Positions 1-54,185 of a DNA stretch of 54,185 nucleotides are shown in pieces (the first letter of the stretch is position 1; each line of letters starts with the position of its first letter). The stretch lies in IMG/VR virus record IMGVR_UViG_3300036794_000064, positions 1-54,185 of that record; one strand, written 5' to 3'. The position numbers and the translations under genes were made by a program. The notes under the pieces were generated by a model, which was given only the letters and a program-made list of their open reading frames with translations, was not told the origin of the DNA and did no database searches. The stretch comes from a virus. Taxonomy: Duplodnaviria; Caudoviricetes.

Positions 1-127
1 GGTGTTGCGGTCCTGCATGTGGAGCGGGAAACGGCCGGTGTTCAACTGGACCGGCTGCCGGTACCCGGCACGCCATTCGGCCGGAATATCCAGCTCCGGA
101 GTGTCGGGGCCCGGGCATGGCACGCAG
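1..127. repeat. Terminal direct repeat, copy 1 (identical to 54059-54185); circular-assembly overlap
   Basis: ggtgttgcggtcctgcatg...gggcatggcacgcag occurs at both ends; 127 nt equals a common assembler k-mer; a CDS reads through the junction. Confidence 0.95.
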
Positions 128-318
128 CGGATCGCGTCGTGCTGGGCTTCGAGCTCGTGGGCGTAGTCGATGTCCGGCTGCAGCGACGTGTTCATGCACA
201 ACCAGATTTCGTCGATCAGCCCGGCTTGGACGTCGCGGAGCAGGTACGGGATCAGGATCGAAACGGTCCGCTCACGCCCGAACGGCACCCATGCGATGAC
301 ACGGTGGCCGCGGTGCAT
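1..318 (-). CDS. 5' part of a GT-A-like glycosyltransferase spanning the circular junction (continues to 53408)
   Basis: ATG at 318 overlaps the epimerase stop (TGATG); translation MHRGHRVIAWVPFGRERTVSILIPYL...CVPCPGPDTPELDIPAEW joins ORF 53408..54181 in frame. Confidence 0.85.
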   Translation of the reverse strand, partial: MHRGHRVIAWVPFGRERTVSILIPYLLRDVQAGLIDEIWLCMNTSLQPDIDYAHELEAQHDAIRCVPCPGPDTPELDIPAEWRAGYRQPVQLNTGRFPLHMQDRNT

Positions 319-1316
319 CAGCCGGCCCGCAGTCTCGACGACAGCAGCTTTCCGGACCGTCGGGCTTCGGCGGGGATGTGCCAGGCGTCGCCCTCATGCT
401 CGACGAACCAGTCGACCGTGCGTTTCATGCCGGCGTCGAGAGTGAGGAACTGTTCCGGGTCGATCCCGGCCTTGTGGAGGGTGGTGACGTCGGCGGCGAC
501 GGTGGCGTTCGGGACCTCGCCGGGCCGCATCGGCAGATGCGCGACTGGGACCGGGTCGTGGCCGGTGTGCGCGGCTGCGAGGTTGGCGACGAGGTGGGCG
601 ATGTCGTTGACCGTGGCCGACTCGGGCGGCCCGACCTCGAGCGGCTGCTCGTGGATGCGGCCTTCGGCGGCATGGGCGAGGGCGATCGTGAAGACTCGGG
701 CGACGTCGGCGACGTAGATCATGTCGGAGATCTGGGTGCCGTCGCCGTACACCTCGATCGGCATTCCGCACAGGGCCCGGCACACGAACGCGGGGGTGAT
801 CTTGCGAACCTTCGACCAGCCGAACGGGGCGGCGACGGACTGGCGGGGCCCGTAGGCGTTCATCGGCCGGACCACGGCGATCCGGCCGCCGCGATGGTGG
901 TTGTACATTTTGGCGAAATCCTCGGCGCAGGTCTTGGTAATGGTGTAGGCGCCGCCGCCGTGGGTGCGCATCCAGGCGTTGCCTACCGCGGCGTAGACGA
1001 CGGGCAGGCCGTATTGGACGGCGGCTTCGAACACGTTCAGGGTGCCGAGAATGTTCGTCGCTGCGGACGGCCGAGGGTTGCCGATCGTCTCCTGCGTGCC
1101 GAGGACGGCGGCGAGGTGGATGATGCCATCGACGTGGGCGGCGGCTTCGGTGACGATCACGTCGTCGCGGACGTCGCCGAGGATGGTGTCGACGCCGGGG
1201 AGCGGGTCGCGGTGACGTTCGTGGTCGAGGACGGCCACCTGGTGGCCTTCGCCTTGGAGACGTTCGGTGATGTAGCGGCCGATGAATCCGGCGCCGCCGG
1301 TGACCAGGACGCGCAT
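318..1316 (-). CDS. NAD-dependent nucleotide-sugar epimerase/dehydratase (extended SDR)
   Basis: MRVLVTGGAGFIG (GxxGxxG), IIHLAA, catalytic YxxxK (YTITK), NAYGP, GDGTQISDMIYVADVA; ATG overlaps the upstream stop. Confidence 0.93.
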   Translation of the reverse strand: MRVLVTGGAGFIGRYITERLQGEGHQVAVLDHERHRDPLPGVDTILGDVRDDVIVTEAAAHVDGIIHLAAVLGTQETIGNPRPSAATNILGTLNVFEAAVQYGLPVVYAAVGNAWMRTHGGGAYTITKTCAEDFAKMYNHHRGGRIAVVRPMNAYGPRQSVAAPFGWSKVRKITPAFVCRALCGMPIEVYGDGTQISDMIYVADVARVFTIALAHAAEGRIHEQPLEVGPPESATVNDIAHLVANLAAAHTGHDPVPVAHLPMRPGEVPNATVAADVTTLHKAGIDPEQFLTLDAGMKRTVDWFVEHEGDAWHIPAEARRSGKLLSSRLRAG

Positions 1317-2110
1317 CAGACGGTCACCGGTGTGCGGTGGATGGTGAGGTCGTGGCCGCGGCCGTCGACCGGGCCGATCTGCTCGGGGAAGTGGCGGCCT
1401 CGGACATCGTGGCGGACCCAGGTGGGGTAGCCGAGCGCGGCGGCGTCGGCGTGGTAGCAGGGGTCGTCGGTGAGGCCGTCGTCCAAGCTCCACCGCCAGC
1501 GGAGTTTGAGGAACAGGTCGCGGCGGACGAGCAGGAACCCGGCGGTGTTCATATGCTCGCGGACGTCGGCGCCTTCGGGGAACGGGCGCCCATCGAAGTG
1601 CCTGAAGGAGTAGTCGTTGGCGATCCGGGCAGCCCACTGTGGCGGATCGCCGTTCAGGGCCGTGTCGATAGCCTCGACCTTGGGGCCGTTGAGGCAGTAG
1701 GTGGGGATGTGGCCGCCGACGATCGGCCAGTCCACCTCGAGCAGCCGTCTCACCGCGTCGCCGGGCACGGTCACGTCGGAGTCGACGAACAGGATGTGGC
1801 TGGCGCCGATGTCGTGGCCGTATTGGGTGACCAGGTTCCGGCCGGCGCAGATCCGGGTGAGCCGGTTCCGGCCGGTGATCGTCTCGGCCCGGTCGTCGAG
1901 CGAGAACGTCCAGTAGACACCACCGGCCTCTTCGAGCTCGGTGATCAGCGCGGTGTGCGGCTCTTCGCCGCGGGCGTCGACTTCGAGCGCCGCGAAGAGT
2001 TGGATGTCGCTGGTGGCGTGGAGTTCTTCGACGGTCGCCAGCCACGACAGGACCGAGCGGGGGTCGTCGGTCTTGTACGGGGCGCAGGTGGTGCCGACCA
2101 GCACGGTCAC
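1316..2110 (-). CDS. Glycosyltransferase, GT-A fold (GT2-like)
   Basis: GRNLV..., HILFVDSD (DxD), TAGFLLVRRDLF, TDDPCY...GYPTWVRHDVRGRH; GTG start overlaps the upstream stop. Confidence 0.8.
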   Translation of the reverse strand: MTVLVGTTCAPYKTDDPRSVLSWLATVEELHATSDIQLFAALEVDARGEEPHTALITELEEAGGVYWTFSLDDRAETITGRNRLTRICAGRNLVTQYGHDIGASHILFVDSDVTVPGDAVRRLLEVDWPIVGGHIPTYCLNGPKVEAIDTALNGDPPQWAARIANDYSFRHFDGRPFPEGADVREHMNTAGFLLVRRDLFLKLRWRWSLDDGLTDDPCYHADAAALGYPTWVRHDVRGRHFPEQIGPVDGRGHDLTIHRTPVTV

Positions 2111-2343
2111 TGAGCCGGGGCCTCCGCAACTTCGGGGGGGGCTTCGACCGGGACGTCGGGCACCGCGACCGGTTCCGGCGCGGCCTCGTACTCGGACACG
2201 AAGTCGGCGTCGTTGACCGCGGTCACCGATCCGTCTTCGTGCTGGACGAGCCAATGCCCGGCCGGGATCGTCACCCCGGAGATGGTGAGGTCGAGGCTGA
2301 CTTGCGCGGCTTCGACGGTGGCGGGCTTGCGGATGTATTTCAT
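2107..2343 (-). CDS. Small protein of the 'YxxKP..VEA...G[DH]Whh...F..EYE' phage family (PGDYG/Acb4-like, tentative)
   Basis: MKYIRKPATVEAAQV...PAGHWLVQHEDGSVTAVNDADFVSEYE plus acidic Pro tail; RBS AAGGAG; ATGA overlap. Confidence 0.6.
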   Translation of the reverse strand: MKYIRKPATVEAAQVSLDLTISGVTIPAGHWLVQHEDGSVTAVNDADFVSEYEAAPEPVAVPDVPVEAPPEVAEAPAQ

Positions 2344-3404
2344 GCGGCGCTCCTTTTTTCGATCGGTGCGGTCCAGGTGTCCCACCAGCGGTCGCAGTGG
2401 GTTTCGTAGGTGAGGTCGGCCATCACCCGGCGCCCTTCCCCGGCCAGGTCGGTGCGGGCGTCGCGGCTGGCGCATAGCCGGCCGAGGGTGCGGGCCCACT
2501 GCCCGCGCGAGCTGGCGAGCATGCCGACCCCGGCCCGGTGCAACCGGAGGTTGTCGGGGGTGGGTGACATGACGACGGGGACGCCGAGGGCGGCCATCTC
2601 CATCGCTTTCAGGCACGACTTGGCGTGGTTGAACGCGGAGTCTTCGAGGGGGACGATGCCGACCTGGAGTTCGGCGAGCGCGTACGGGTAGTCGTCGAAC
2701 ATCACCCAGCCGGTCGCTGACGGTTTCTCCCGGAGCCGCAACGCTTGCTGGACGCCTTCGACGGGGCCGATCGTGTGGAACGTCCAGCCGGTGCGGGCGA
2801 GGACCTGCTGGACGGTGCCTTCGGTGGTTTGCAGGTCACCGGGGTGGGTGCCGACAACACCTGACCAGCCGATCGTGTTCGGGCGTTCCGGGACGGACAT
2901 GGCCAGGTAGGCGGCCGGGACCAGATTGGGGAGGAGGATCCCGTGGCCGTGGCCGTATCTTGATATCAACGGGGCGGTGGTCGCGGTGACGAGGTCGGCT
3001 TGTTGGCAGGCCCGGTCGATCCATTCGTGATGAACGTGGGTCTGCCGGTAGGAGCCGTGACCGACATGGCTTTTGGAGAGCCCGTCGAACAGGTCGTCGA
3101 CGTCGACGACCACCCGGACGCCTTGCTTGTGGAGGTCGGGGATCATGTCCGCCCACCAGCGCCGGCCGGGCCGTTGGATCACGACCACGTCAGCTTCGAC
3201 CGGCTGGGCCAAGCTGACGTATTGGACGTCGGGGCCCGGCGGTAGGCCGTCGTCGGCGCCGGGCCATTTGCGGTCCCAGTTGACGACCGGGCCGACGGTG
3301 TCGATGTGCACGTCGGCGCCCTGCTGCTGCAAGGCTTGGGCGGGCAGGATGAGCCGGTAGTGGCCGCAACCTTGAAGATCCGCCGGCCAAACGACAACCT
3401 TCAC
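2340..3404 (-). CDS. Glycosyltransferase, GT-B fold (GT4-like)
   Basis: GCGHYRLILP, VVVDVDD, ADLVTATT, IGWSG, VGIVPL..SAFNHAKSCLKAMEMAALGVPVVMSP. Confidence 0.85.
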   Translation of the reverse strand: MKVVVWPADLQGCGHYRLILPAQALQQQGADVHIDTVGPVVNWDRKWPGADDGLPPGPDVQYVSLAQPVEADVVVIQRPGRRWWADMIPDLHKQGVRVVVDVDDLFDGLSKSHVGHGSYRQTHVHHEWIDRACQQADLVTATTAPLISRYGHGHGILLPNLVPAAYLAMSVPERPNTIGWSGVVGTHPGDLQTTEGTVQQVLARTGWTFHTIGPVEGVQQALRLREKPSATGWVMFDDYPYALAELQVGIVPLEDSAFNHAKSCLKAMEMAALGVPVVMSPTPDNLRLHRAGVGMLASSRGQWARTLGRLCASRDARTDLAGEGRRVMADLTYETHCDRWWDTWTAPIEKRSAA

Positions 3405-4753
3405 TTCAGTCGGGCCAGCCTGTCCTGCACGCGGGCCAGGTCCGCGTCAAGCGCGGCGTCCGCTGCCGCCTGCGCTTCGGGACTGGCCGGCTCGGGCTCG
3501 GGGTCGGAGCGTTTGCCGGCGGTGTCAACGCCGAACTTCTTCGCCGCGGCGGTGATCTTCGGCATCGCCTCCTTCGCGAACTCGGCGCCTTGGGCGGCCC
3601 GGGCCAGCGCGTTACGGACATGAGCGGCGTCGGGCAGCGGGAAATGCCGCTTCGAGCGGGGCATCGTCTTGCCGGAGGCGTCTTTGGTGCCGCCCGGCTC
3701 GATGTAGCCGAACACCGAGTCGGGCAGGTCGTCGGTCTCCTTCGACGAGAGCATCGCCCGGCCGCCGTCACCGTCGTCGTGTTGGTCGGGGTCGTCGATG
3801 CCCATCACGTCGAGCAGCTCGTCGACCGCGACCCCGGCCGCCTGGACCAGAGCGAGGGCCTGCTGCACATTGTCCGGGAGGCTGGTGACGTCGAACCCGT
3901 CGAGCAGGTTCGCGGCCTCGTCCAGGGCGGCGTCGACCGCCGAGGCGAGCGTGGCCGGATCGCCGTCGTCTCCCCCGTCGCCGTCGCTGGCGACACCGCC
4001 GGTGGTGACGGTGCCGTCCGAGCCGATATGGATGACCATGTCCCGCAATCCGGACCCGGCCATCTCGCCGGTGAACTTCTCCACCCACGCGGCCCGCTGC
4101 TCGGCCGTCATCTCCGGTGGTCGAACGGTCGTGCCGATCTTGATGTGCTCCCGGAACGTCGGGTAATGCTCGGCGACCAACGCCCGCACCCCCTCGTCGT
4201 CCAGAATCCGCTGGTCCCGCAAGCGCAGGATCTCGTCGATGGTCGGAGTATCCAACGTGGGTGCCTCCTGGGAGCGGATCCCGACCGCGGCCGCGCCGGG
4301 GATCGACGGGAACACGACGGGAGAGTTTTCGAGCATGTCGGCCTTCACGAACCGGCGGGCCCCTCGAACATCGGGGTGGACGACGCTTCGCCCGTTGCGG
4401 TAGTGGAAGCTGAACCCGGGGACGATCTTGTCCTCGATCATCGAATGCGCCGCCCGGGCCTGGGGGACAGCGTCGAAGTCCGCGAACCGGTTGATGACCC
4501 GGGCCCGGTCGCCGAGTTCCTCGGTGCGGACGCCGGCGCCGATCAGAAGATCAGGATTGTGGTTCCACAACATCACCGGGAGACGCTTGGCGAACGATTC
4601 CCGCCAGCAGCCCCGGGCCCAGTCGGTGCGGTATCCGTCGAGGACCTGGTACGGGTAGTCGACCACCACTTGATGGCCGTCGAGGTCGGTGATCTCCGCG
4701 ACAGTGGCCACATCGGCCCGGTAGCCTTCTTCGAGTTGTTCGGTCATGGTCAC
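3401..4753 (-). CDS. HK97-type prohead protease with acidic linker and C-terminal DUF6582-like domain
   Basis: MLWNHN..IG (catalytic His), GFSFHY (catalytic Ser), LENSPVVFPS; C-terminal DLPDSVFGYIEPGG..RHFPLPDAAHVRNALAR. Confidence 0.85.
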   Translation of the reverse strand: MTMTEQLEEGYRADVATVAEITDLDGHQVVVDYPYQVLDGYRTDWARGCWRESFAKRLPVMLWNHNPDLLIGAGVRTEELGDRARVINRFADFDAVPQARAAHSMIEDKIVPGFSFHYRNGRSVVHPDVRGARRFVKADMLENSPVVFPSIPGAAAVGIRSQEAPTLDTPTIDEILRLRDQRILDDEGVRALVAEHYPTFREHIKIGTTVRPPEMTAEQRAAWVEKFTGEMAGSGLRDMVIHIGSDGTVTTGGVASDGDGGDDGDPATLASAVDAALDEAANLLDGFDVTSLPDNVQQALALVQAAGVAVDELLDVMGIDDPDQHDDGDGGRAMLSSKETDDLPDSVFGYIEPGGTKDASGKTMPRSKRHFPLPDAAHVRNALARAAQGAEFAKEAMPKITAAAKKFGVDTAGKRSDPEPEPASPEAQAAADAALDADLARVQDRLARLK

Positions 4754-4774
4754 CTCCAGGTGATGCCGGAAGAA

Positions 4775-6178
4775 TCAGGCTGCCGAGAACAGCAGCGAAC
4801 AGCGGCAGTTGCAGACTTCATCCGGTGGGGCGGTCGGGTCGCCGGGGAACATCATCCGGCTGGCGCCGACATGGAACGGGGCGTGCAAAGGGACTTTCTG
4901 GCCGTCGGCTTTGCGGTGGGTGGGCCGGGTGCGTTCGTCGTGGTGGGCGAGCCACTCCTTCGACGCCACCGCACCCGATTGCAGGCTCGCGGCATACAAG
5001 TAGGCGGCCTCGTTGAGGGCGCCGATGGACTCCGTCCGGGCGATCAGCTCGGCTCTCGATCGGGCGACGTCGAACACGTGCTGGACCCGGGCCGTCAACT
5101 GGGCGGTCGAGTCGCCGTCCTCGATGCCTTCGGCGAGGGTGTCGCGGATCTGGGCGAACGTGGTGTCGGTGATCGTGGCCGCGGCCCGGTTCTCCCGGCT
5201 CCGGAGGATGTACACCGACCGGGCGATCGACGTCGACGGGAGTCCGAGTTGCTGGGCGATTCGCTCGAGGGACAGGGTGTTGGCGTCGTCGTAGATCGGC
5301 GCGAGGGCTTGGGCGGTCTGGTCGGCCCAGAAGGTGGTGTCGAAGATGGCGGCGGCGTCGGGGACGGCCGGGACCGGGCCGGGTGTGCCGGTGGTCAACG
5401 CCGGCGGTACCGGGGCTGGGGGGAGCGCGGCCGGCGGGTTGCGCTGGTCGGCTCGGACACCGGCGAGCATCCGTTTCCCTCGGCTGCCGCGGAGACGGGA
5501 GAGGGTGCCAGCGCGTTGCCGGTCGAACAAGACGACCATCGCCTGATGGATGACCGGTTCGAGCTTGTCGGCGTCGGAAGCGAACCGGTCCTTGTGGACC
5601 ATCCGCTCGCGGTGTCTGCCCGCGGCCTGGGCTTGGCCGACAGTCGCCAGCGCACGCTTCCCGGCGGTCTTGGCCCGTTTCTTGCCGTGAATCGCGGCGG
5701 TGGCGGCCATGCCGCAGATCGTGCACTTGGTCAGGTCGGCGCCGCGGAAGGCGTGCGGAACATCCGCGTCGGGGTGCTGGCCGGCCATCTTCGCTTCGAC
5801 CGCCTGCGCTACTTTCGGCGACGGCCCACGAGGCAGGAGCGTCCCGGCCGAGCCGCCCTCGGTGACCGGGCCCATGTCCCGGGAGCCGTGGGCTTGTGCC
5901 TTTTTTGCCTCCCATTCGGCTACTGCTTTGGCGGCGCGGGCGCGGGTGGCGTCGGTGACTTTGCCTTCGCCGGCCGCCCACCGCTTCACGGTGCCGACGG
6001 CGAGGGAGACGGCGTCGGATTCGCTGTGGCCGGATCGGAGTAACGCCTGGGCGATGGCCCGGATGTACAGCGGGAGGCCGCCGACGCGGTTGACCCAGTT
6101 CTTGCCTTGGCCGATCGGGACGATGTCGCACGGACCGTCGCCGGTGCACACCCCGGAGCGGATGTCGGTGAGGGTCAC
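4775..6178 (-). CDS. MuF-like (SPP1 gp7) minor head protein with additional N-terminal domain
   Basis: RAELIARTES, KEWLAHHDERTRPTH..ADGQ, FPGDP..PPDEVCNCRC; GTG start overlaps the zincin stop. Confidence 0.88.
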   Translation of the reverse strand: MTLTDIRSGVCTGDGPCDIVPIGQGKNWVNRVGGLPLYIRAIAQALLRSGHSESDAVSLAVGTVKRWAAGEGKVTDATRARAAKAVAEWEAKKAQAHGSRDMGPVTEGGSAGTLLPRGPSPKVAQAVEAKMAGQHPDADVPHAFRGADLTKCTICGMAATAAIHGKKRAKTAGKRALATVGQAQAAGRHRERMVHKDRFASDADKLEPVIHQAMVVLFDRQRAGTLSRLRGSRGKRMLAGVRADQRNPPAALPPAPVPPALTTGTPGPVPAVPDAAAIFDTTFWADQTAQALAPIYDDANTLSLERIAQQLGLPSTSIARSVYILRSRENRAAATITDTTFAQIRDTLAEGIEDGDSTAQLTARVQHVFDVARSRAELIARTESIGALNEAAYLYAASLQSGAVASKEWLAHHDERTRPTHRKADGQKVPLHAPFHVGASRMMFPGDPTAPPDEVCNCRCSLLFSAA

Positions 6179-6615
6179 AGCGCCTCGAAGAATGCAACCG
6201 TGGCTGCGGCCGGGTAGTCGCCGTAGCCGTGGAGCAGCCACGTGCAGAAGGCTTCGGCAAAAGCCTCCATCCGGTTTCTTTGGGCGTAACTCGTGACCGG
6301 CTTGGCGTCGTGATCGAACCCCACGGAATGGTGGAGGACGTGTCCTAGTTCGTGAACCACTGTTGCTGGGCGGTGTCTCTTGGGAAGGACGACCGTCGTG
6401 CGGCGTCGGCTGGCAGCGAGGTGGTTCTGATGGAACGGGTAGGCGACGTGAGCGGTCGAACTGTACGCTCTGCCGTCGGTGGCCGTCTCGAAGTGGTGGA
6501 GGCCAGCGAACACTGGATCGACGCCGACAAGGAAGTCGCAGGCGACGAGGGGGTGAAGCGGCTTGGGGATGACGCCGAGGGCCGCGGTGATCGCTTCGGA
6601 ACGGCCGCGGTTCAT
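6175..6615 (-). CDS. Zincin-like metallopeptidase (HExxH)
   Basis: TVVHELGHVLH followed by SYAQRNRMEAFAEAF (third Zn ligand, lethal-factor-like pattern); ATG overlaps the portal stop. Confidence 0.8.
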   Translation of the reverse strand: MNRGRSEAITAALGVIPKPLHPLVACDFLVGVDPVFAGLHHFETATDGRAYSSTAHVAYPFHQNHLAASRRRTTVVLPKRHRPATVVHELGHVLHHSVGFDHDAKPVTSYAQRNRMEAFAEAFCTWLLHGYGDYPAAATVAFFEAL

Positions 6616-8774
6616 ACGCCGGCGACGGTGAGGGCGTCGCCGAGCCGCTCGAGGCGGTCCATGTCGAACACCGGCTCGCCCCGCTTCCCGGCCTGGTCGA
6701 CCGGCTGCGCGGCGTGCACCACCGGCAGCCACGACCCGGCATCGGCTTTCAGTTCGTCCCGCACCGCCGGGTTCTCCGGCAGATGGTCCGGGTCGAACCA
6801 GGCGGCCGTCTCCTGATACTTCCCGCGAGGATTGTCCGGGTTGCGGATCTTCGCCCGATCCGGGTTCACCTTCAAACCGGCCTCTTCGGGGATGACAAGC
6901 ACATGCCCCCGGTAGACGCCGTTCGGACTGGTCCACGACCCGGCGACGTTCCCGTCGGGCATCGGGACGCCGACCTCTTCCTGCCACTCCCGCCGGGCGG
7001 CGTCGAACGAGTCCTCGCCCGGTTCGATATGACCGCCAGGAAACTCCCACCGACCCGACGACGGATCCTTCTCGTCCAACGCCCGCTGCAACATCAGCAC
7101 CCGGCCGGTGTCACCAGCTTTGACCGCGACACCCGCCGCGACGAGCTTGGAGGGGCCGGAGCGGATGCCGAGCTCCCGGCGGCGGCGCATCCGGGCGACC
7201 TGCTCGCAGATCTGATCCGCCAGGATCGGCGTCGGAACCGCGGTGCGAGCCCGGTGGGCTCGGATACCGGCGGCGGTGATCCGCTCCCGCGGTTTGCGGA
7301 CCAGACCCCAGCCGGCCCGGCCCGAGTTGATCGTGAACGTCGTCGTCGGCCGGTGCCGCCACAGCCACCCTTCCGGCGCCCCCATGGCCGGCGACCCCGC
7401 ACCGTGCAGGCGCAGCGACCGGCCGCCCGCGCCGCCCGACGACGAGGCTTCGTCGACCTCCTCGCCGAGCGGCGCCGTCGAAATGTCCTCGCCGGTAGCG
7501 GTGAACGACGGGATCCGCAGCAGATCCGACGCCTGCTGCGGGCTGATCACCCCGGCGTCGATGGCGTCCTTCAATGACGGCGCCTGAAAGATCGTCGGCG
7601 GCTGGAGGGCGACGACACGGGACAGGTCGAACCAGCCGACATCTTCCCCCAACTTGGGGGCCAGCTGGAGGTTGACGTCGTCCTGGAGCTCCATGATGTC
7701 GTTCACCGCCGTCAACGTCCAGAAGTTCCGGTACTCGCTGTCGGCGTTCGCGTAGATCCGCTGCGACGCGTCACCGATCAGGCTCTTGGACACCCCCAAC
7801 GCGATGTTGATGTCGGACTTCGCTGTCTCCACCATCTGCAGCAGCTGGGCGTCGACGGACTTCATGGACAGGTCGACGACCTGCACGCTGGCCTGGTCGG
7901 CGAGTTTGCCGGCCTGGTCGTAGTCGTTCTCCGCCTCCGCGAAGATCGTCTTACCGGCGTTGTCGAACCCGGAGAACTCGGAGAAGAACTGGTCTTCCCA
8001 CGCCCGCCGGTCGGCGGGATCCTCGAACGGCGGGGCGATCACGATCTTCGACGCCACCATCCCGTTTTTCAGCAGGGACCACATGTACCGGTCGGAGGCG
8101 ACAGCGATCTCGATCGGCAGTTTCGCCGCTTTCAACACGGACTCGGGTTGGCGCCAGTCTTCGATGCTGGGCCGCCAGGCGTAGAAGACCCGGTCGACGG
8201 TGAACGGGATGATCCCGGTCGGGGTGCGGTACTGGAAGCCTTCGAACCAGGTGGGTTTGCCGGGCATCGACGGGATCGGGTCGAGCGCGGCGGCGACCAG
8301 CGGCCACAGGGCGATGATGTCTTTCGACTGCGGGTCGAGTTGCTGTTCCCAGGCCATGCGGCCGGTGACGATGCGCTGCACGATCGACCACGTCCACAGG
8401 GCTCGGGCGGTGGTCGTCGGGTTCGGTCCGCCCGGCTCCTGCGGGCTGGCGGGGCCGAGGAGTTTGGCGAGGGGTGCGCCGGGGGTGGTGACGGACGGGT
8501 TGTCGGGGTCAGGTCCGGCGCAGAACGGCAGGGCGCTGATGGTTTCGGCGCGCAGCCGGACGCAGCGCATCACATAGGTGTGGCCCATATAGGCGATCTG
8601 GGCGGCCTGCTGGGCGTCCCAGTCGACGTACAGCGGCTGGTGGGGGCTGACGTAGGTGGTGCTCGAGGTGGCGCCGATTTTCCCGCGGCCGGCGGCGGGC
8701 GGGTTGATGGCCATGCCGAGTCCGGCGCCGGTGCCGGGGAGGGCTCGGACGGCGAGGCGGTCTAGGAATCCCAT
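6612..8774 (-). CDS. Portal protein (HK97-like) fused to a C-terminal NUDIX hydrolase
   Basis: Position after terL; YVMRCVRLRAETISALP, NAGKT, DAQLLQ...INIALGVSKSLIG...YANA; Nudix box GGHIEPGEDSFDAARREWQEEVG at about 6968-7036. Confidence 0.9.
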   Translation of the reverse strand: MGFLDRLAVRALPGTGAGLGMAINPPAAGRGKIGATSSTTYVSPHQPLYVDWDAQQAAQIAYMGHTYVMRCVRLRAETISALPFCAGPDPDNPSVTTPGAPLAKLLGPASPQEPGGPNPTTTARALWTWSIVQRIVTGRMAWEQQLDPQSKDIIALWPLVAAALDPIPSMPGKPTWFEGFQYRTPTGIIPFTVDRVFYAWRPSIEDWRQPESVLKAAKLPIEIAVASDRYMWSLLKNGMVASKIVIAPPFEDPADRRAWEDQFFSEFSGFDNAGKTIFAEAENDYDQAGKLADQASVQVVDLSMKSVDAQLLQMVETAKSDINIALGVSKSLIGDASQRIYANADSEYRNFWTLTAVNDIMELQDDVNLQLAPKLGEDVGWFDLSRVVALQPPTIFQAPSLKDAIDAGVISPQQASDLLRIPSFTATGEDISTAPLGEEVDEASSSGGAGGRSLRLHGAGSPAMGAPEGWLWRHRPTTTFTINSGRAGWGLVRKPRERITAAGIRAHRARTAVPTPILADQICEQVARMRRRRELGIRSGPSKLVAAGVAVKAGDTGRVLMLQRALDEKDPSSGRWEFPGGHIEPGEDSFDAARREWQEEVGVPMPDGNVAGSWTSPNGVYRGHVLVIPEEAGLKVNPDRAKIRNPDNPRGKYQETAAWFDPDHLPENPAVRDELKADAGSWLPVVHAAQPVDQAGKRGEPVFDMDRLERLGDALTVAGV

Positions 8775-8796: not shown

Positions 8797-8958
8797 CTAA
8801 CGATGTTGGGCGGTGCGTCGGGCCAGTTCCCGCAGCTGGTCGGCCGACGCGCGGGCGAGGATCTCGGGGAGGTGGCGGGTCGCCCAGCGGATCCCGGCGT
8901 AGAAACTGCCGGCGCAGCCGACGCCGGTGATGATCGCGGACCATTCGAACGGGGTCAC
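8797..8958 (-). CDS. Small membrane protein
   Basis: MTPFEWSAIITGVGCAGSFYAGIRW hydrophobic segment; GTGA overlap with the terL stop. Confidence 0.55.
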   Translation of the reverse strand: MTPFEWSAIITGVGCAGSFYAGIRWATRHLPEILARASADQLRELARRTAQHR

Positions 8959-10238
8959 CGGCGGCTCACGTAGGTCATGCGGGCACCTCTCGGTTTCACG
9001 CTTTCGGCCAGGTCCGTGACCGCCCACACCAGGGCGTCCATCCGGTCCGGCGACGTCCCCGAGTCAGGCACCCACGACAACATCTGGTCCTCCAGCTGCG
9101 GGAACATCCCGACGTGGTGGACGCGGCCTTGCTCGTACAGGGCGGAGACAGGCTCGGCCCGCTGCCGTTTCCCCCGGGACGCGTGCACGACCCGGACCGG
9201 CACGTTGGGCCGCACGGAGCGGAGTGTGTGTTCGACCATCTGGCCGCCGTAGTTCGACTCGGCCACGACCCGGTCCCCGCAAAACTCGTCCAACGCCAAC
9301 AGGGCCCGGTCGGCCCACTGTTGCGGGGTGCCCCGACACGACCGGTCGGCCAGCACATAGAACTCGCTGCCCGCCCGGCCGCAGGCGACGATCCCGGTCT
9401 CGTCGTTGTGTTCGCCGGTGCCGCCGGCAGGGTCGATCGCCACCACCACCCGGTCCAGGTCGGGCGGTTCGCTGATTCTGCCGGCATCGACCAGGGCGAC
9501 AGTCCACAGGGCGCCCTCGACGTCGTCCAGGAGCTCGCCTTCGAGCTCCTGGCGGCCAAGGCGGGTGCCGCCGTAGTCGGCGTACAGCTGGTCGCGGACC
9601 ATCTGGTCGAGGTGGATCGCTTCGGAGGTTTTGCCTCGGGTGACCCGTGTTTTCGGGTCGGCGATGAACCCTTTCAACGCCAGGCGTGGTTTGGGGGTGG
9701 TCGACGCGACGATATGCGGCCGGGTGCCGAGGCGGAGACCGTAGCGGGAGTGGCGCATCGCCTCGTCGAGTTTCGCCCAGGCGGCGAGCTCTTCCCACCA
9801 GGCGAGGCACCGGTTTCCGCCGGCCCGGAGCCGTTCGACGTCTTCGGGTCCGTGGGCGCCGAACAGTTTCCCTTCGGCGCCGCCGGGGAACAGGACGTAG
9901 GTGCCGCCTTTGCGGGTCACTTCCCGGATTTCGGGCCAGTACGCTTTGAGGCCGGAGGGGCCGTTGACGCAGGCGTCGGATGCGTCGCCGAGGGTGGGGG
10001 CGATGATGGCCATGCGGTGGCCGCCGGGGAGTCGGTGGTCGCAGGCGGGGCCGCGGACGTGGTCGATGACGTAGTGGGCTGCCCCGTCGGTTTTGCCGGT
10101 GCCTCGGCCGCCGAGCTGGAGCCACGCGCCGGCTGGGGGGATGTGGTCGGGTGGGATTTGCCACGGGTACGGCTCCCAGCCGCCGTGATCGGGGGGCGGC
10201 CGGTCGACGAGTGCTGCTGTGGCGGCGAGGACTCCCAC
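8955..10238 (-). CDS. terL: Terminase large subunit
   Basis: Walker A GGRGTGKT, Walker B AWWEE, STTPK coupling motif, nuclease AIDPA, AESNYGG, SPDRMDALVWA. Confidence 0.95.
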   Translation of the reverse strand: MGVLAATAALVDRPPPDHGGWEPYPWQIPPDHIPPAGAWLQLGGRGTGKTDGAAHYVIDHVRGPACDHRLPGGHRMAIIAPTLGDASDACVNGPSGLKAYWPEIREVTRKGGTYVLFPGGAEGKLFGAHGPEDVERLRAGGNRCLAWWEELAAWAKLDEAMRHSRYGLRLGTRPHIVASTTPKPRLALKGFIADPKTRVTRGKTSEAIHLDQMVRDQLYADYGGTRLGRQELEGELLDDVEGALWTVALVDAGRISEPPDLDRVVVAIDPAGGTGEHNDETGIVACGRAGSEFYVLADRSCRGTPQQWADRALLALDEFCGDRVVAESNYGGQMVEHTLRSVRPNVPVRVVHASRGKRQRAEPVSALYEQGRVHHVGMFPQLEDQMLSWVPDSGTSPDRMDALVWAVTDLAESVKPRGARMTYVSRR

Positions 10239-14887: not shown

Positions 14888-15823
14888 CTAGCTGTTCGTG
14901 ACTGCGAGCATCCGCTCGAGAAGGTCAACGGCGGATGCTTTGGCGGCGGCCCGCGGTTCGGCCAGTTTGGTGTTCAGGACCTCTTGGAGTCTGGCTCGGA
15001 CGGCGTCGCGGATCGCCCAGTAGACGTGCGACCACCGGGCAACGGCAGCGGCAACGGCAGCGGCAGCGGCAACGGCAACGGCATCGGCAGCGGCAGCGGC
15101 AACGGCAACGGCAGCGGCAGCGGCAACGGCAGCGGCAACGGCAACGGCAGCGGCAGCGGCAACGGCAGCGGCAGCGGCAGCGGCAACGGCATCGGCAGCG
15201 GCAACGGCAACGGCATCGGCAGCGGCATCGGCAGCGGCAACGGCAACGGCATCGGCAGCGGCAGCGGCAACGGCAACGGCAGCGGCAACGGCCGTGAGGC
15301 CTCGCTTTTCAAGCTCGGCCTTCACGGCCCCCCTGATCTTCTTGCTCCACGAGTCCCGCAACGGCCACGTGACGTCACGGACCGCGTCAATCGTCGGGCC
15401 GCACGCCAGCCAGTCGGCCCGGCTGGTGACGGTCGGGAGAGCCTCTACCTGGGCGGCCTGGTCGTCGAGGCCGGCGGCGCGCAGCCAGAGCGGCAGGTGG
15501 AAGTGGACCATCCAGTCGGCGGCCATCCAGCCCCGCTGGTCCTCTTGGGCTTTGGTGCCTTTCGATCCGACGAGCCGGGTGATGTACGGCTTGAGGGCCT
15601 GCCGGTCGGTGTCGCCGAGGTCGTCGTTCCACCGGCGCATGAACGCCGCGATCGTCGGCGATGCGCACTGTGGATGGTCGGACCAGGGTTCGCCGGCGAC
15701 CCAGGCGACGGCTTCCATGATGCACGCTTGGATGTCGCCATCGGTGGGCGGCCGGTGGCCTCCGGATTTCAGGATGAGGCTGTCGATTCGGGCGGCTCGT
15801 TCGGGGATAAGGGCGGTGGTCAT
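14888..15823 (-). CDS. Phage protein with an 84-aa Ala-(Val/Ala/Asp) repeat insert
   Basis: RBS GAAAGGA; N-terminal CIMEAVAWVAGEPWSDHPQCASP..FMRRWND; repeat is in frame. Confidence 0.8.
   Translation of the reverse strand: MTTALIPERAARIDSLILKSGGHRPPTDGDIQACIMEAVAWVAGEPWSDHPQCASPTIAAFMRRWNDDLGDTDRQALKPYITRLVGSKGTKAQEDQRGWMAADWMVHFHLPLWLRAAGLDDQAAQVEALPTVTSRADWLACGPTIDAVRDVTWPLRDSWSKKIRGAVKAELEKRGLTAVAAAVAVAAAAADAVAVAAADAAADAVAVAAADAVAAAAAAAVAAAAAVAVAAAVAAAAAVAVAAAAADAVAVAAAAAVAAAVARWSHVYWAIRDAVRARLQEVLNTKLAEPRAAAKASAVDLLERMLAVTNS
15041..15292. repeat. 42-unit hexamer tandem array (AACGGC/AGCGGC/ATCGGC)
   Basis: 252 bp built from three hexamer variants; reads GCC-G(T/C/A)T on the coding strand. 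Confidence 0.95.
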
Positions 15824-51279: not shown

Positions 51280-52608
51280 CTACGACAGGGCCGTGTTGCA
51301 GGCCAGGTCGGGCCGGAAAATCATGAGCCCGGTCCGCTCCTCCGTGATCAGCAGCACCAAGTTCTGCTCGGCGTACCGCTCGTTGTACACCTGGGTGTTG
51401 ACCTGCTCGCGGTCGACGATCATCATCGACCGTTCGAAGTCGCACACCAGAGCGGACCCGGAAGGCTTGGCACGGGTCCGGTAGGTCGGCACACCCCACA
51501 CCGTCAGCGGCAGAGCCGAGAACGGCGTGCCGGCATCGAACGTGCCGGACCCGCCCGCCGCGCGCTTGGTGAACATCGACCAGGCGTCCGTCGGGTTGAA
51601 CACCACCGCGGTGACCGCCCCGTCCTGGTTCTCCACCTTCGCGAACGCATTCCCGACAGTGATCGCGTACTCCCCCGAGGTTGAGGTCTGGGAGAGGATG
51701 TTGGGGTCGTTGAGGATGCCGCCGATGTCCGGCCACGTGCCCGACCCGGACAGGTACTGCTGGTCCTCGCGGAACTTCACCAGGTACGGGAGACGCTGGT
51801 TGATGTACTGGACTACCGCGGGGGCGTCCTGGAACATCTGCTTCGACAAGGTCAACGTCGACGCCACCACGGTGATGGGGGCGTTCTCCGACTCGAACGA
51901 CAGCTGCGCGGACGGCTTGGTCGAGCCTTCCGCCACCGTCGAAGCGCCGCCGGAGGCGACGGACTCGCCGGCGACCGGGTTGAGTTCCCGGACGTACGGC
52001 ATCGTCGGCAGGGTGGTGGTCATGGTCGGGATCAGGTCCCGCAGGTACAGCTTGGCGTGACGCGGCACCGGAGGGATCGGCTGGCCCAACCTGGGGAGGA
52101 GACCGCCGGAGTCGGTCGAATCGAAGCTCGGAGGACCGGACGATCCCCATTCGGTGACCGCGGCCCGGACGCCTTCGCCGCCGCCGTAGATCGCGGCGAG
52201 ACGCAGCCAGTTGGTGAGCTCCTTGCCGTCTTTGCCGTCGAACTCGGCGGAGAACACGTGCTGGCGTTGACCGGAGCGGCCGTCCAGTTCGTAGTTGACC
52301 CAGCCGCCGTTCGGGCTGCGCTCGAGCGCGGCGAGGAGTTCGGGAGTGACGATGGCGTCGCCGATCGACCGGAACCCGGCGCCGACGAGCGGGGCGGCGG
52401 TGGCGGCGATGCGGGCCTGCTCGCGTCGTTCGACGGCGGCGGACAGGGTCAGGAAGGTGTCGAGCGAGTCGACCTCGCGGATCATGTCCTTGAGGGCGTC
52501 GTCGTCGATGTCGGAGCGGCGCCCTTCGGACAGGTCGATGAAGTCGCTTTTCAGCTCCTTCAGTCGGGCTTCTACGTCCTCTACGGACGCGTCGGATAGT
52601 TTCAGCAC
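51280..52608 (-). CDS. Major capsid protein (HK97 fold, N-terminal scaffold/delta domain)
   Basis: LRDLIPT, YVRE, VAEGSTKP, LSKQMFQDAP, EDQQYLSG.G, FNPTD, WGVP, NLVLLITEERTGL..FRP. Confidence 0.93.
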   Translation of the reverse strand: MLKLSDASVEDVEARLKELKSDFIDLSEGRRSDIDDDALKDMIREVDSLDTFLTLSAAVERREQARIAATAAPLVGAGFRSIGDAIVTPELLAALERSPNGGWVNYELDGRSGQRQHVFSAEFDGKDGKELTNWLRLAAIYGGGEGVRAAVTEWGSSGPPSFDSTDSGGLLPRLGQPIPPVPRHAKLYLRDLIPTMTTTLPTMPYVRELNPVAGESVASGGASTVAEGSTKPSAQLSFESENAPITVVASTLTLSKQMFQDAPAVVQYINQRLPYLVKFREDQQYLSGSGTWPDIGGILNDPNILSQTSTSGEYAITVGNAFAKVENQDGAVTAVVFNPTDAWSMFTKRAAGGSGTFDAGTPFSALPLTVWGVPTYRTRAKPSGSALVCDFERSMMIVDREQVNTQVYNERYAEQNLVLLITEERTGLMIFRPDLACNTALS

Positions 52609-52721: not shown

Positions 52722-53411
52722 TTAGCTGGCGAGGGCGGTGACTGCGGCGGCGGTGAAGCGGTCGCGGTCAGCGAAATATCCGGGGCGGGTCTGCATGGCC
52801 ACCCCGTGTTGGTCGAGATCGACGAAGGTTTCGTCGCCGCGCATGGGGATGATCATGGAGCCGGGGTTGGCGAGGCCGGCGAGGATGTCGTCGCCGACGT
52901 AGGCGGCTTCGGGGTCGGCGAGGCGGACGGTTTCTTCGGCGGCGAGCATGCGGACGAGGGCGTCGTGGGCCATGAAGATGACCCGGCCGTGGAAGGCGTC
53001 GACTTTGGTGGGGGCGGGGACGACGGACGGGAAGATGAGCTGGCCGTTCATGAAGGACCGGTCGGTGAGCCGGACTCCCCAGTAGCCGGTCACGAACCCG
53101 GGTTTGGCGTGTCGGAGAAGGCATTCCAGGGTGCGGGGTCCGACCGAGGTGTCGTCGTCGGCGAGGAGGTAGTGGTGGGCGGGGTGGAAGAGGGCGGCGA
53201 CGAACTTGCCGCGGCATTCCATGTTGTCGCCGCCGATCACGCTCACCTGAGGGCCGCGGAAGTGGTCGAAACGGTGGGGGGCGGTCGGGTTGTTGTTGAG
53301 GATCAGGATCCGATCCGGCACGGCTGTGCCGTGCTGCAGGTCGTTGACGATCCGTTCGACGTTGGCGAAGCGTGGCTCCCAGAACGAGCAGACCACCGCA
53401 GTGACCGTCAT
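52722..53411 (-). CDS. Glycosyltransferase-like protein (GT-A fold)
   Basis: VTAVVCSFW..R, DRILILNNNP, HYLLADDD (DxD), VGDDIL; ATGA overlap. Confidence 0.72.
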   Translation of the reverse strand: MTVTAVVCSFWEPRFANVERIVNDLQHGTAVPDRILILNNNPTAPHRFDHFRGPQVSVIGGDNMECRGKFVAALFHPAHHYLLADDDTSVGPRTLECLLRHAKPGFVTGYWGVRLTDRSFMNGQLIFPSVVPAPTKVDAFHGRVIFMAHDALVRMLAAEETVRLADPEAAYVGDDILAGLANPGSMIIPMRGDETFVDLDQHGVAMQTRPGYFADRDRFTAAAVTALAS

Positions 53412-54185
53412 GCTGCAGTGGCTCCGTCCATCGACTGCTGCGCCGCCAGGCCGCTGTAGTACAGGCCGGCCGTGACTCGGTCGGCCAGGGCCCGGTACCG
53501 GTCGAGGATGTCGGTCCGCTCGAGCAGATAGTCGCGTTGGGTGTAGAAGGAGAAGTGGGCGACTTGGGCCATGCCGCACACCCGGTTGTCGCGGTTCACG
53601 ATCCCGGGATGGTGCATGGTCAGCCAGTGCTCCTCCTCGTCCCAACTGAGAAAACCGTTGAGGTCGGCGTACTCGGAGCCGTGAATCGCGAAGCAGGACA
53701 CAGAGAACTGCTGGCGGCGTCCCAACTGGAGCTCGGCCGGGAGGAGCAGCGAGTCTTCGGCGCCGGCCTCGAGGTAGGAGAGGAGATGCCCGTGGACGCG
53801 TTCAGCGAACACCGGGTCCTGCCAGCCGACCGGATCCACCGCGGACACCTCCTCGGAGGTCCGGGCCCGGGCGGCGACTTTCCCCCAGTCGAGCGGCAGC
53901 CGGCCGTGCCGCTGAGCCATCCACGACGAAATCGAATTGTTCCAAATCAGCGGGAAGACGGCGATGGTGTCGTACCGTCGGTCGAGTACCCGGTCGGCCA
54001 GGGTGCGCACGGTGTCGGGGTGGACCCAGACGATGTCGTCGTCGAAGCGGACGTAGATGGTGTTGCGGTCCTGCATGTGGAGCGGGAAACGGCCGGTGTT
54101 CAACTGGACCGGCTGCCGGTACCCGGCACGCCATTCGGCCGGAATATCCAGCTCCGGAGTGTCGGGGCCCGGGCATGGCACGCAG
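53408..54185 (-). CDS. 3' part of the junction-spanning GT-A-like glycosyltransferase
   Basis: TIYVRFDDDIVWVH (DxD), FSVSCFAI, DEEEHWLT, VAHFSFYTQ. Confidence 0.8.
   Translation of the reverse strand, partial: CVPCPGPDTPELDIPAEWRAGYRQPVQLNTGRFPLHMQDRNTIYVRFDDDIVWVHPDTVRTLADRVLDRRYDTIAVFPLIWNNSISSWMAQRHGRLPLDWGKVAARARTSEEVSAVDPVGWQDPVFAERVHGHLLSYLEAGAEDSLLLPAELQLGRRQQFSVSCFAIHGSEYADLNGFLSWDEEEHWLTMHHPGIVNRDNRVCGMAQVAHFSFYTQRDYLLERTDILDRYRALADRVTAGLYYSGLAAQQSMDGATAA
54059..54185. repeat. Terminal direct repeat, copy 2
   Basis: Identical to 1-127. Confidence 0.95.

Follow-up and report, generated by a model that had tools for sequence, protein, structure and literature searches.

The window analysed here is the whole 54,185-nucleotide sequence of IMG/VR record IMGVR_UViG_3300036794_000064, a virus of the class Caudoviricetes (Duplodnaviria), and our subject is its head module, in which a short motif, G-x-R-[A/S], recurs in the portal, prohead protease and capsid proteins and may mark the positions at which these proteins are cut during maturation. 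The first and last 127 nucleotides of the window (1–127 and 54059–54185) are identical, and a public contig runs uninterrupted across the junction of its ends, which is why we treat it as a complete circular genome of 54,058 bp. Gene calling by codon-position GC score yielded 72 open reading frames (ORFs) in DNA of 63–70% GC. Besides the HK97-type head module, the sequence encodes an integrase, a ParB protein, a large terminase and tail genes, and it is a temperate, siphovirus-like genome of 54 kb.

Results

Organisation of the head module

All genes of the module lie on the minus strand. The large terminase (8955–10238) comes first in module order, followed by a portal protein fused to a NUDIX domain (6612–8774, 720 amino acids (aa)), a 146-aa ORF with an HExxH motif between the portal and MuF genes (6175–6615), a MuF protein (4775–6178, 467 aa; Pfam Phage_Mu_F, E 1.6e-18) and an S78 (HK97-type) prohead protease with a long C-terminal extension (3401–4753, 450 aa). 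About seven glycosyltransferase, epimerase and unknown genes (1–3404 and 52722–54181) then span the junction of the window ends, the ORFs at 1–318 and 53408–54181 being a single 322-aa gene across that junction, and beyond them lies the HK97-fold major capsid protein (51280–52608, 442 aa; Pfam Phage_capsid, residues 189–434). Because the genome is circular, the capsid gene sits ~5 kb downstream of the protease gene. We placed the MuF start at the GTG at 6178 on the basis of the codon-position GC score and a 4-base overlap (6175–6178) with the ORF that ends at 6175; the longest possible MuF ORF (4775–6742, 655 aa) was rejected, its first 188 codons being Arg/Pro-rich and overlapping the portal gene and the HExxH ORF out of frame.

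Motif enrichment in the head proteins

An earlier note on this DNA had proposed that cuts at G-x-R-[A/S] motifs free accessory domains of the head proteins inside the capsid. Checked against translations and positions, all the sites that it listed are where it put them, and the capsid GVRA that it placed at about 52162–52173 matches exactly (residues 146–149); GKRG, DIRS and GSRD are looser than the strict motif, and the remainder conform to it. Additional sites were found in the portal (GIRA at residues 503–506 and AVRA at 8–11) and in the protease (GDRA at 81–84, GVRA at 188–191 and GLRD at 235–238). Throughout, the proposed cut follows the arginine, which occupies P1, with glycine at P3 and alanine or serine at P1′.

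The four head proteins (portal, MuF, protease and capsid; 2,079 aa) contain 14 strict motifs against 2.4 expected, a number that none of 5,000 shuffles reached. The 68 other ORFs (13,872 aa) contain 9 against 13.3–13.5 expected (13.3 in the head versus non-head comparison, which had been named beforehand as a check on the idea and bears it out). To guard against post hoc choice of the motif, all 8,000 patterns of the form X.YZ were scored in the head proteins, and G.RS (6 vs 0.74 expected) and G.RA (8 vs 1.66) ranked first and second. Partial patterns stayed at background, with 9 against 10.1 for G.R followed by any residue other than Ala or Ser, 30 against 26.2 for.R[AS] preceded by any residue other than Gly, and 0 against 1.2 for G.K[AS]; the excess therefore requires Gly at P3 plus Ala or Ser at P1′. 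These counts confirm that the motif excess is real and far above chance.

The same excess is found in relatives. We gathered 510 homologous proteins from large protein collections, and the close homologs (57–77% identity) carry 120 strict motifs against 10.9 expected for the protease (24 proteins), 98 against 12.2 for the capsid (27 proteins) and 92 against 17.6 for the portal (25 proteins). Seven decoy patterns of matched composition (the reversed motif, shifted spacings, Lys in place of Arg and the two half-motifs) gave observed-to-expected ratios of 0.0–1.8 in these three sets. The excess declines with homolog distance: capsids at 42–56% identity have 135 against 34.4 expected, more distant portals 48 against 26.4, proteins with no more than the protease domain in common 66 against 46.4, and those related through NUDIX alone 39 against 52.4.

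Within the protease, the motif arginine is at least 90% conserved at 5 of the 6 strict sites, compared with 4% of the 27 other arginines, whose mean conservation is 0.52, and the near-invariant arginines of the linker sites sit in flanks of only 0.35–0.37 identity. In these alignments, the deep constant is arginine at P1 with a small residue after it, and glycine at P3 is a preference of the close clade.

Most strict sites also fall in predicted disordered linkers. Among the nine strict sites of the portal and protease, seven (all three of the portal and four of the six in the protease) have their arginine within 3 residues of a segment modelled at a predicted local distance difference test (pLDDT) score below 50, against 0.52 expected from local composition, and the relaxed portal sites AVRA and GKRG lie in such segments as well. 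The suggestion that sites would map to predicted domain boundaries thus holds for these seven, and fails for GDRA and the GVRA at residue 188 of the protease, both in ordered structure. Conservation in homologs, likewise named in advance as a check, bears out the portal, protease and capsid (Arg 0.78–1.00 at linker and boundary sites) and not MuF (full motif 0.15).

Sites and inserts in the portal protein

The portal protein matches Pfam Phage_portal at residues 68–413 (E 3e-26) and NUDIX (PF00293) at 545–668 (E 3e-19; 69.9 bits, cut-off 21.1). An AlphaFold2 model built from 31 sequences (mean pLDDT 70.0) resolves a core, a small beta domain (453–493), a helix (517–534), the NUDIX domain (546–688) and a C-terminal helix (705–718), with pLDDT below 50 at residues 1–45, 420–451, 497–513, 532–542 and 695–707. 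The NUDIX domain (6771–7142, minus strand) has an intact Nudix box, GHIEPGEDSFDAARREWQEEVGV, with the box glycine at residue 581 and every position of GX5EX7REUXEEXGU filled (G-HIEPG-E-DSFDAAR-REWQEEVGV).

Five candidate sites, all encoded on the minus strand, are distributed over these segments. AVRA (residues 8–11; 8742–8753), a relaxed site with Ala at P3, lies in the disordered N-terminus; across 31 aligned portals the conservation of R10 and A11 reaches 90% or more, and portal–MuF fusion homologs read GVRA, GTRA or GDRA at this position. GGRS (450–453; 7416–7427) ends the linker after the core, with Arg in 0.96 of 23 homologs, the full motif in 0.61 and a flank identity of 0.35. GIRA (503–506; 7257–7268) lies in the linker that follows the small beta domain (Arg 0.78, full motif 0.52), and GIRS (536–539; 7158–7169) in the segment directly upstream of NUDIX (Arg 0.78, full motif 0.57), a position at which NUDIX-less portals retain G-x-R-[AS/T]. 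GKRG (696–699; 6678–6689), relaxed with Gly at P1′, follows NUDIX directly in segment 695–707; its column reads G-x-R in 12 of 12 NUDIX-bearing homologs and G-x-R-S in 9 of them, and GKRS in P0261, which carries a different insert. The claim that motifs bracket the NUDIX domain, with GIRS just before it and GKRG just after, is thus borne out, and both sites are in linkers of pLDDT below 50. Counted by region in 23 portal homologs, the motif occurs 12 times against 2.2 expected at the N-terminus, 24 against 1.5 in linker 420–453, 32 against 2.4 in linker 497–545 and 10 against 0.8 in the tail, and is absent from the portal core (0 vs 4.9).

What lies between the last two sites varies. NUDIX occupies that place in 13 of the 24 sequences of the portal alignment, and the other portals have a short coiled coil, an unrelated domain (P0261) or the N-terminal module of MuF (P0269); in P0258 a module of the MuF N-terminal type comes after NUDIX. 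Nearly all aligned portals keep G-x-R at both flanks and the same terminal helix (consensus L-D/E-R-L-G-D-x-L). More distant portals end, according to precomputed Pfam labels, in MuF, ParB, Zeta/AAA or 2H-phosphoesterase domains or in inteins (e.g., P0278, P0286, P0332, P0296 and P0270). These comparisons support the view that NUDIX behaves as a swappable cassette flanked by conserved sites. Portal and NUDIX are encoded in one ORF of the late head cluster, an arrangement shared by at least 12 homologs, and with two recognised domains the fusion stands at the minimal end of the 'polyvalent' range.

Some related portals contain Hint or LAGLIDADG intein parts, and the portal part of P0373 has an intein-like insert. 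The NUDIX domain is 45–52% identical to domains in the gene-3 portal/MuF fusion of Arthrobacter phages Sonali and Mufasa8, and equally to a hydrolase of Streptomyces phage Gilgamesh and to the 'capsid maturation protease' of Pseudanabaena phage Pam4.

The prohead protease and its C-terminal extension

Residues 21–156 of the protease match Pfam Peptidase_S78 (PF04586; 29.4 bits, cut-off 21), and the score against the NCBIfam equivalog TIGR01543 (19.4, cut-off 59) marks it as a divergent S78 member. Foldseek matches the model to herpesvirus assemblins (probability 0.98–0.99) and to T4 gp21 (5jbl_B; probability 1.00, root-mean-square deviation 4.5 over 145 columns). His65 (WNHNPD) and Ser115 (GFSFH) are invariant in 24 aligned sequences and, from their position in the family, we infer that they form the catalytic pair; with the Pfam match and the assemblin fold, the protease looks active. 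The AlphaFold2 model, from a 24-sequence alignment (mean pLDDT 78.9), runs from a disordered N-terminus through a protease domain that ends at ~160 and is modelled at pLDDT above 90, a helical middle region, an acidic linker, a helical hairpin and a linker to a DUF6582-like domain (~335–410), a further linker and a C-terminal helix.

The DUF6582-like domain (3524–3751, minus strand) is tentatively assigned from a Pfam match below cut-off (PF20223; 18.4 bits, cut-off 27.3, E 2.8e-3) and a structural match in the Atlas (TM 0.89), the matched cluster carrying DUF6582 in 89% of its members; several close protease homologs have a DUF6582 Pfam hit in precomputed tables. A literature search found no paper on DUF6582.

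Seven candidate sites (all on the minus strand) occur along the protein, with conservation given over 23 homologs. GYRA (residues 10–13; 4715–4726) lies in the N-terminal segment of pLDDT below 50, with Arg in 23 of 23 and Gly at P3 in 0.83. GDRA (81–84; 4502–4513) forms a beta-hairpin turn modelled at pLDDT above 90, and its Arg is kept in 0.61. GIRS (158–161; 4271–4282) closes the protease domain, abutting a linker of pLDDT below 50 (Arg 23 of 23, P1′ Ala/Ser 0.96, full motif 0.74). In the middle region are GVRA (188–191; 4181–4192; Arg 0.91, full motif 0.83), within the model helix 184–194, and the relaxed GLRD (235–238; 4040–4051), which reads G-x-R-[D/A/N/S] in most of the 24 sequences. 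GGRA (330–333; 3755–3766) is in the acidic, gap-rich linker ahead of the DUF6582-like domain, abutting a segment of pLDDT below 50 (Ala at P1′ in 21 of 23, flank identity 0.37), and GKRS (413–416; 3506–3517) is in a segment of pLDDT below 50 at the junction of that domain with the C-terminal helix (Ser at P1′ in 19 of 23, flank identity 0.35). The bracketing of the DUF6582-like domain by GGRA and GKRS, claimed from the sequence of this phage, therefore extends to its relatives, the Arg being present in 23 of 23 at both sites.

In the 23 homologs the motif occurs 17 times against 0.4 expected at the domain end, 18 against 0.8 in the linker before DUF6582 and 14 against 0.6 in the linker after it, and not at all inside DUF6582 (0 vs 1.3). 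Two of the 23 (P0011 and P0025) have a different insert in place of DUF6582 and keep R-A before it and R-S after it, and on this evidence DUF6582, too, is supported as a swappable cassette between conserved sites.

Conserved amphipathic helices rich in L-D/E-R-L follow the last G-K-R of both proteins (portal residues 705–718, 6621–6662; protease residues 425–449, 3407–3481). These helices may serve in assembly or targeting and be removed by cleavage as well.

The capsid protein

The capsid protein begins with a delta region of ~148 residues that holds three sites, again on the minus strand. GRRS (residues 29–32; 52513–52524) and GFRS (78–81; 52366–52377) lie within the region; across 27 close homologs both Arg and the P3 Gly of GRRS are invariant, and GFRS has Arg in 0.93 and the full motif in 0.74. 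GVRA (146–149; 52162–52173) is the predicted maturation cut, which would make A149 the first residue of the mature protein; 0.93 of the close homologs have the full motif. It coincides with a switch from gap-rich, variable sequence to the conserved VTEWG...GQPI N-arm, so that its earlier placement at the start of the mature fold agrees with the delta/mature boundary as drawn by alignment. Over all 114 capsid homologs Arg is found there in 0.96 and Gly at P3 in only 0.56, and more distant capsids read T-R↓A (the arrow marking the proposed cut).

MuF and the HExxH ORF

MuF comprises an N-terminal module (8–99), a Cys-rich segment, a helical segment, a Pro-rich linker and the MuF domain (343–462). 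Its candidate sites (minus strand) are the relaxed DIRS (5–8; 6155–6166), just upstream of the N-terminal module and weakly evidenced; the relaxed GSRD (98–101; 5876–5887), with Asp at P1′, at the end of that module; GKRA (173–176; 5651–5662), doubtful as a site; and GVRA (240–243; 5450–5461), ahead of the Pro-rich linker into the MuF domain. The fusion homolog P0373 has G-H-R-A ahead of the same N-terminal module. The GSRD column reads R-D or R-x in most of 20 homologs, one of which has a large insertion after it.

The N-terminal module (residues 8–99, 5882–6157; GVCTGDGPC ... WEAKKAQAH) is mobile: modules of this type also occur at the C-terminus of portals P0258 and P0269, at the N-terminus of protease P0035 and as stand-alone proteins of ~110 aa. 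An Atlas structure search with it returned weak leads only (best 0.84; ChaB 0.79) and no family that could be named.

The HExxH ORF has a HELGH zinc-metallopeptidase motif and a Peptidase_M78 match below cut-off (E 1.3e-3), and contains no G.R[AS] site. No homolog of it was found among the 510 head-protein homologs, fused portal and MuF proteins included, or in 11 related loci.

Other features of the genome

The genes between protease and capsid include a GT1-family glycosyltransferase and an NAD-dependent sugar epimerase/dehydratase, and glycosylation genes are inserted at the same place in related loci L018, L020, L021, L023 and L024. In cluster O mycobacteriophages, glycosyltransferase genes lie in the interval from the portal gene to the protease gene (PMC4351075). 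The presence of glycosyltransferase and epimerase genes in the head module suggests virion glycosylation. An ORF at 14974–15288 (minus strand) consists mostly of LPLPLP repeats, is the source of the top-ranked non-head patterns (L.LP and P.PL) and may not be a real gene. A nucleotide search of 50,697 phage records gave no close relative, and the hits of a protein search of phage records were limited to distant portals and matches to NUDIX, in phages of Arthrobacter, Streptomyces and Pseudanabaena.

Discussion

A proposed maturation pathway

We propose that G-x-R↓[A/S] is the recognition motif of this clade's own S78 prohead serine protease, which would cut after the arginine. Inside the assembled prohead, it would cut the capsid delta region at R31, R80 and R148 to leave a mature subunit from A149, itself at R160, R332 and R415 (possibly also at R12, R190 and R237), and the portal at its N-terminus and C-terminal linkers (R10, R452, R505, R538 and R698). 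A NUDIX fragment of ~160 aa (S539–R698) would come away from each of the 12 portal subunits and a DUF6582 fragment of ~83 aa (A333–R415) from each protease copy, both from insert positions that relatives fill with other domains while keeping the flanking sites. The predicted products would further include capsid A149–442, portal core A11–R452, portal pieces 453–505, 506–538 and 699–720, protease domain A13–R160 and the protease C-terminal helix.

We put the probability that S78 protease cleavage at the motif sites frees NUDIX and DUF6582 inside the head at about 60%, judging from sequence and predicted structure. Its parts are not equally secure. The case for G-x-R-[AS] as a selected processing site is strong for portal, protease and capsid and weak for MuF, and the sites are very probably cleaved. 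The S78 protease is likely to be the cutting enzyme, and it is the most economical candidate because the motif marks the capsid delta region and its boundary, which are standard substrates, together with the linkers of the protease and the portal tail. Since neither NUDIX nor DUF6582 contains an internal site, both should survive whole once freed, and they are probably too large to exit a closed prohead, which fits packaged cargo as an argument only. Retention of the folded fragments in the head, followed by their exit together with the DNA, is a tentative proposal, to which we give somewhat less than even odds.

The clade may even possess a modular 'cut-out cargo slot', a doubtful proposal in which any domain placed between two G-x-R↓S sites is loaded into each prohead at fixed copy number, excised by the head protease and injected with the DNA. 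In the portal, present at 12 copies per head, or in the protease, present in tens, the slot may lie just upstream of the conserved C-terminal helix, and its flanking motif may co-evolve with the S1 pocket of the protease. Its payloads may include NUDIX, which could perhaps act at entry by destroying defence signals derived from NAD or ADP-ribose, as well as DUF6582, the N-terminal module of MuF, which is mobile, and the domains (ParB, Zeta and 2H) found in relatives.

Several observations weigh against this interpretation or narrow it. The cleavage case is built wholly from sequence statistics and structure prediction. At protease GYRA and capsid GRRS, P1′ is Ala or Ser in only 0.43 and 0.63 of homologs, respectively. 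Protease GDRA, in an ordered hairpin of the fold, is probably not a processing site, and the accessibility of GVRA 188 is uncertain because it is inside the predicted helix; both may be left uncut. Homologs of MuF (top 37) have 46 motifs against 34.2 expected (1.35-fold), which is no enrichment. In 20 MuF homologs GKRA keeps its Arg in 0.95, has His at P1′ in 15 and shows the full motif in only 0.15, and GVRA keeps Arg in 0.95, with P1′ Ala/Ser in 0.70, Gly at P3 in 0.20 and the full motif in 0.15. The inclusion of MuF among proteins with a selected motif, as the earlier note had it, is therefore not upheld, only Arg being kept at its strict sites; an enriched motif common to capsid, portal and protease does not extend to MuF. 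MuF processing is the weakest part of the proposal, with probably one R↓A/S cut, ahead of the Pro-rich linker.

The reach of the motif is also limited. In 11 more distant viral and metagenomic loci, whose capsids are 35–63% identical (two short fragments at 72% and 79% were left out), head proteins have 18 motifs against 8.5 expected (2.1-fold) and other ORFs 29 against 28.9, counts that come from our own crude gene caller and from few head proteins per locus. These loci have lost Gly at P3 and kept Arg-Ala/Ser, e.g., as T-R↓A, so the strict motif is limited to the close clade. Homolog counts are non-independent events, and the decoy and local-composition controls address composition, not phylogeny. 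Avoidance of the motif in mature capsid domains (0–2 vs 22.8 expected; 114 homologs) was considered as independent support and rejected: decoys are equally depleted there (1 vs 22.8, 1 vs 25.1 and 14 vs 109.5), so the depletion reflects conservation and shared ancestry and is uninformative. Against NCBIfam and PDB, the NUDIX domain gave only generic MutT-like matches, below NCBIfam cut-offs, from which no substrate or subfamily could be assigned. Finally, the HExxH ORF places a second candidate peptidase inside the module, possibly as an alternative processing enzyme or a cargo protein. The interpretation in the earlier note thus stands for a selected site in portal, protease and capsid, its position in linkers and at the delta boundary, and the bracketing of NUDIX and DUF6582; it does not stand for MuF, nor for Gly at P3 beyond the close clade.

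Alternative explanations

The motif could be cut as we propose and the freed domains still not be cargo. They may act before or during assembly and then be cut off and cleared to make room for DNA, which is the fate of the delta domain and of protease fragments in HK97; they could serve as scaffold-like parts, as aids to portal incorporation or, in the case of NUDIX, through an activity late in the producing cell. The helical middle and C-terminal helix of the protease model resemble scaffold or targeting parts, DUF6582 has no known activity, and portals without an insert retain both sites and the C-terminal helix, from which it follows that the sites serve assembly even where there is no cargo. 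Clearance, however, sits poorly with domains that are probably too large to leave a closed prohead and that lack internal sites (none in this phage; 0 vs 1.3 expected in homolog DUF6582 and 4 vs 2.0 in the portal cassette region), and domains fused to portal, MuF or protease have been read as head-packaged effectors in the accessible parts of PMC9503650 (section 3.5.2) and PMC5512222. We regard this explanation as a serious but unlikely one, and release of intact domains into the head as the better account.

Further readings change the cutter or do away with cutting, and all are far less probable. A host enzyme, Prp, does such trimming for the capsid and scaffold proteins of staphylococcal phage 80alpha. 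Here a host trypsin-like protease or the HELGH-bearing product of the 146-aa ORF at 6175–6615 might act on the motif. Zincin-like peptidases are the commonest domain of head-packaged polyvalent proteins and proposed processors of them (PMC5512222). Such an enzyme would have to account for a motif found at standard S78 substrates, namely the delta/mature boundary of the capsid and the linkers within the protease itself, and the HExxH ORF is without homologs in the proteins and loci surveyed whereas the motif is conserved across the close clade; we consider it quite improbable. Arginine glycosylation occurs in bacteria, and the glycosyltransferase and sugar-epimerase genes between protease and capsid, here and in relatives, would suit a motif that serves as an Arg/Ser glycosylation sequon, if it is not a short docking motif. 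Its concentration in disordered linkers at every domain junction and in the delta region, an internal part that HK97-type capsids lose, is the pattern of cut sites and not of surface decoration, and a small residue after an invariant Arg is what the P1–P1′ positions of protease sites typically show, so that a non-proteolytic role seems very improbable. A chance product of composition was the caveat that the earlier note raised itself, Gly, Arg and Ala being common and the window 63–70% GC. It is answered by the 5,000 shuffles, by non-head ORFs that fall below expectation and by decoys of matched composition that are not enriched, and seven linker sites where local composition predicts 0.52, conserved position by position, reduce its probability practically to nil.

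Relation to known systems

NUDIX domains fused to MuF, to portals and to capsid-processing serine peptidases have been read as head-packaged and injected (PMC9503650, section 3.5.2, in its accessible text), and assemblin-like peptidases have been proposed to process polyvalent proteins (PMC5512222, likewise). The idea of NUDIX in the head is thus already in print; the motif and the bracketed-cassette layout we did not find in print. The accessible parts of Iyer et al. 2017 and 2022 (PMC5512222, PMC9503650) name no cleavage motif, site-bracketed cassette or conserved C-terminal helix. A P1-Arg motif for an S78 enzyme was not found in a search that covered the literature outside the supplements of the Iyer papers, nor were sites that bracket a swappable insert in portal or protease tails, for which those supplements may hold related architectures. 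The literature on actinophage capsid N-termini yielded nothing relevant, the Corndog and D3 papers being without a cut-site sequence in their accessible parts, and for HK97 and its head-protease family no multi-protein cleavage motif was found described in the literature searched. MuF polymorphic toxins are said to have been reported by Jamet et al. in 2017 (PMC5576092).

If the proposal is right, it would supply a sequence-level rule for the cut positions of HK97-family head proteases and turn the published notion of head-packaged NUDIX into a concrete mechanism with defined fragment ends (S539–R698, A333–R415 and A149). The motif could then guide the prediction of mature virion proteins and of cargo for many uncultured actinobacterial phages, and the portal or protease 'slot' could be used to load chosen proteins into capsids at defined copy number.

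With HK97 gp4 the protease shares the S78 family and an assemblin-like fold. The HK97 capsid protein is cut after Lys103. The HK97 protease reportedly undergoes self-digestion and relies on its C-terminal part for targeting (Duda, Oh and Hendrix, 2013). Removal of a 102-residue delta domain from gp5, as given in the accessible HK97 literature, parallels the N-terminal delta removal predicted here for an HK97-fold capsid protein. Unlike the proteins of this phage, the HK97 protease is short and without an accessory domain, and the HK97 portal has no C-terminal enzyme. Trimming of portal N-termini is familiar from lambda, where gpC acts on gpB, and from P2, where gpO acts on gpQ; it parallels the conserved R10↓A11, although the proteases there belong to other families and their portals have no C-terminal cargo.

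T4 gp21 cuts proteins with a capsid-targeting sequence (IPI-III and Alt) at a short motif. T4 also provides the precedent for head-packaged enzymes whose trimming falls to the prohead protease and which are injected along with the DNA (PMC9503650). The T4 cargo proteins, however, are separate polypeptides with an N-terminal targeting peptide, whereas the candidate cargo here is internal or C-terminal, has sites on both sides and no removable N-terminal targeting propeptide, and would remain tethered to the portal or protease until cut.

A parallel also exists with the giant phages. In the accessible text of PMC10052503, SPN3US gp245 cuts the capsid, the portal, itself and ejection proteins at A-X-E, with Ser favoured at P1′. 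Its identified cuts all remove N-terminal propeptides, the self-cleavage propeptide aside, and in our phage the sites bracket internal and C-terminal domains; P1 is Glu there and Arg here, and the protease here is of the HK97/S78 sequence family, unlike those of giant phages. As with SPN3US gp245 and phiKZ gp175 (A/S/G-X-E), one motif would be common to capsid, portal, protease and internal or ejection proteins, with cleavage, proposed here to occur in the prohead as it does for gp245, at several copies of the motif within the regions removed (PMC10052503, accessible text).

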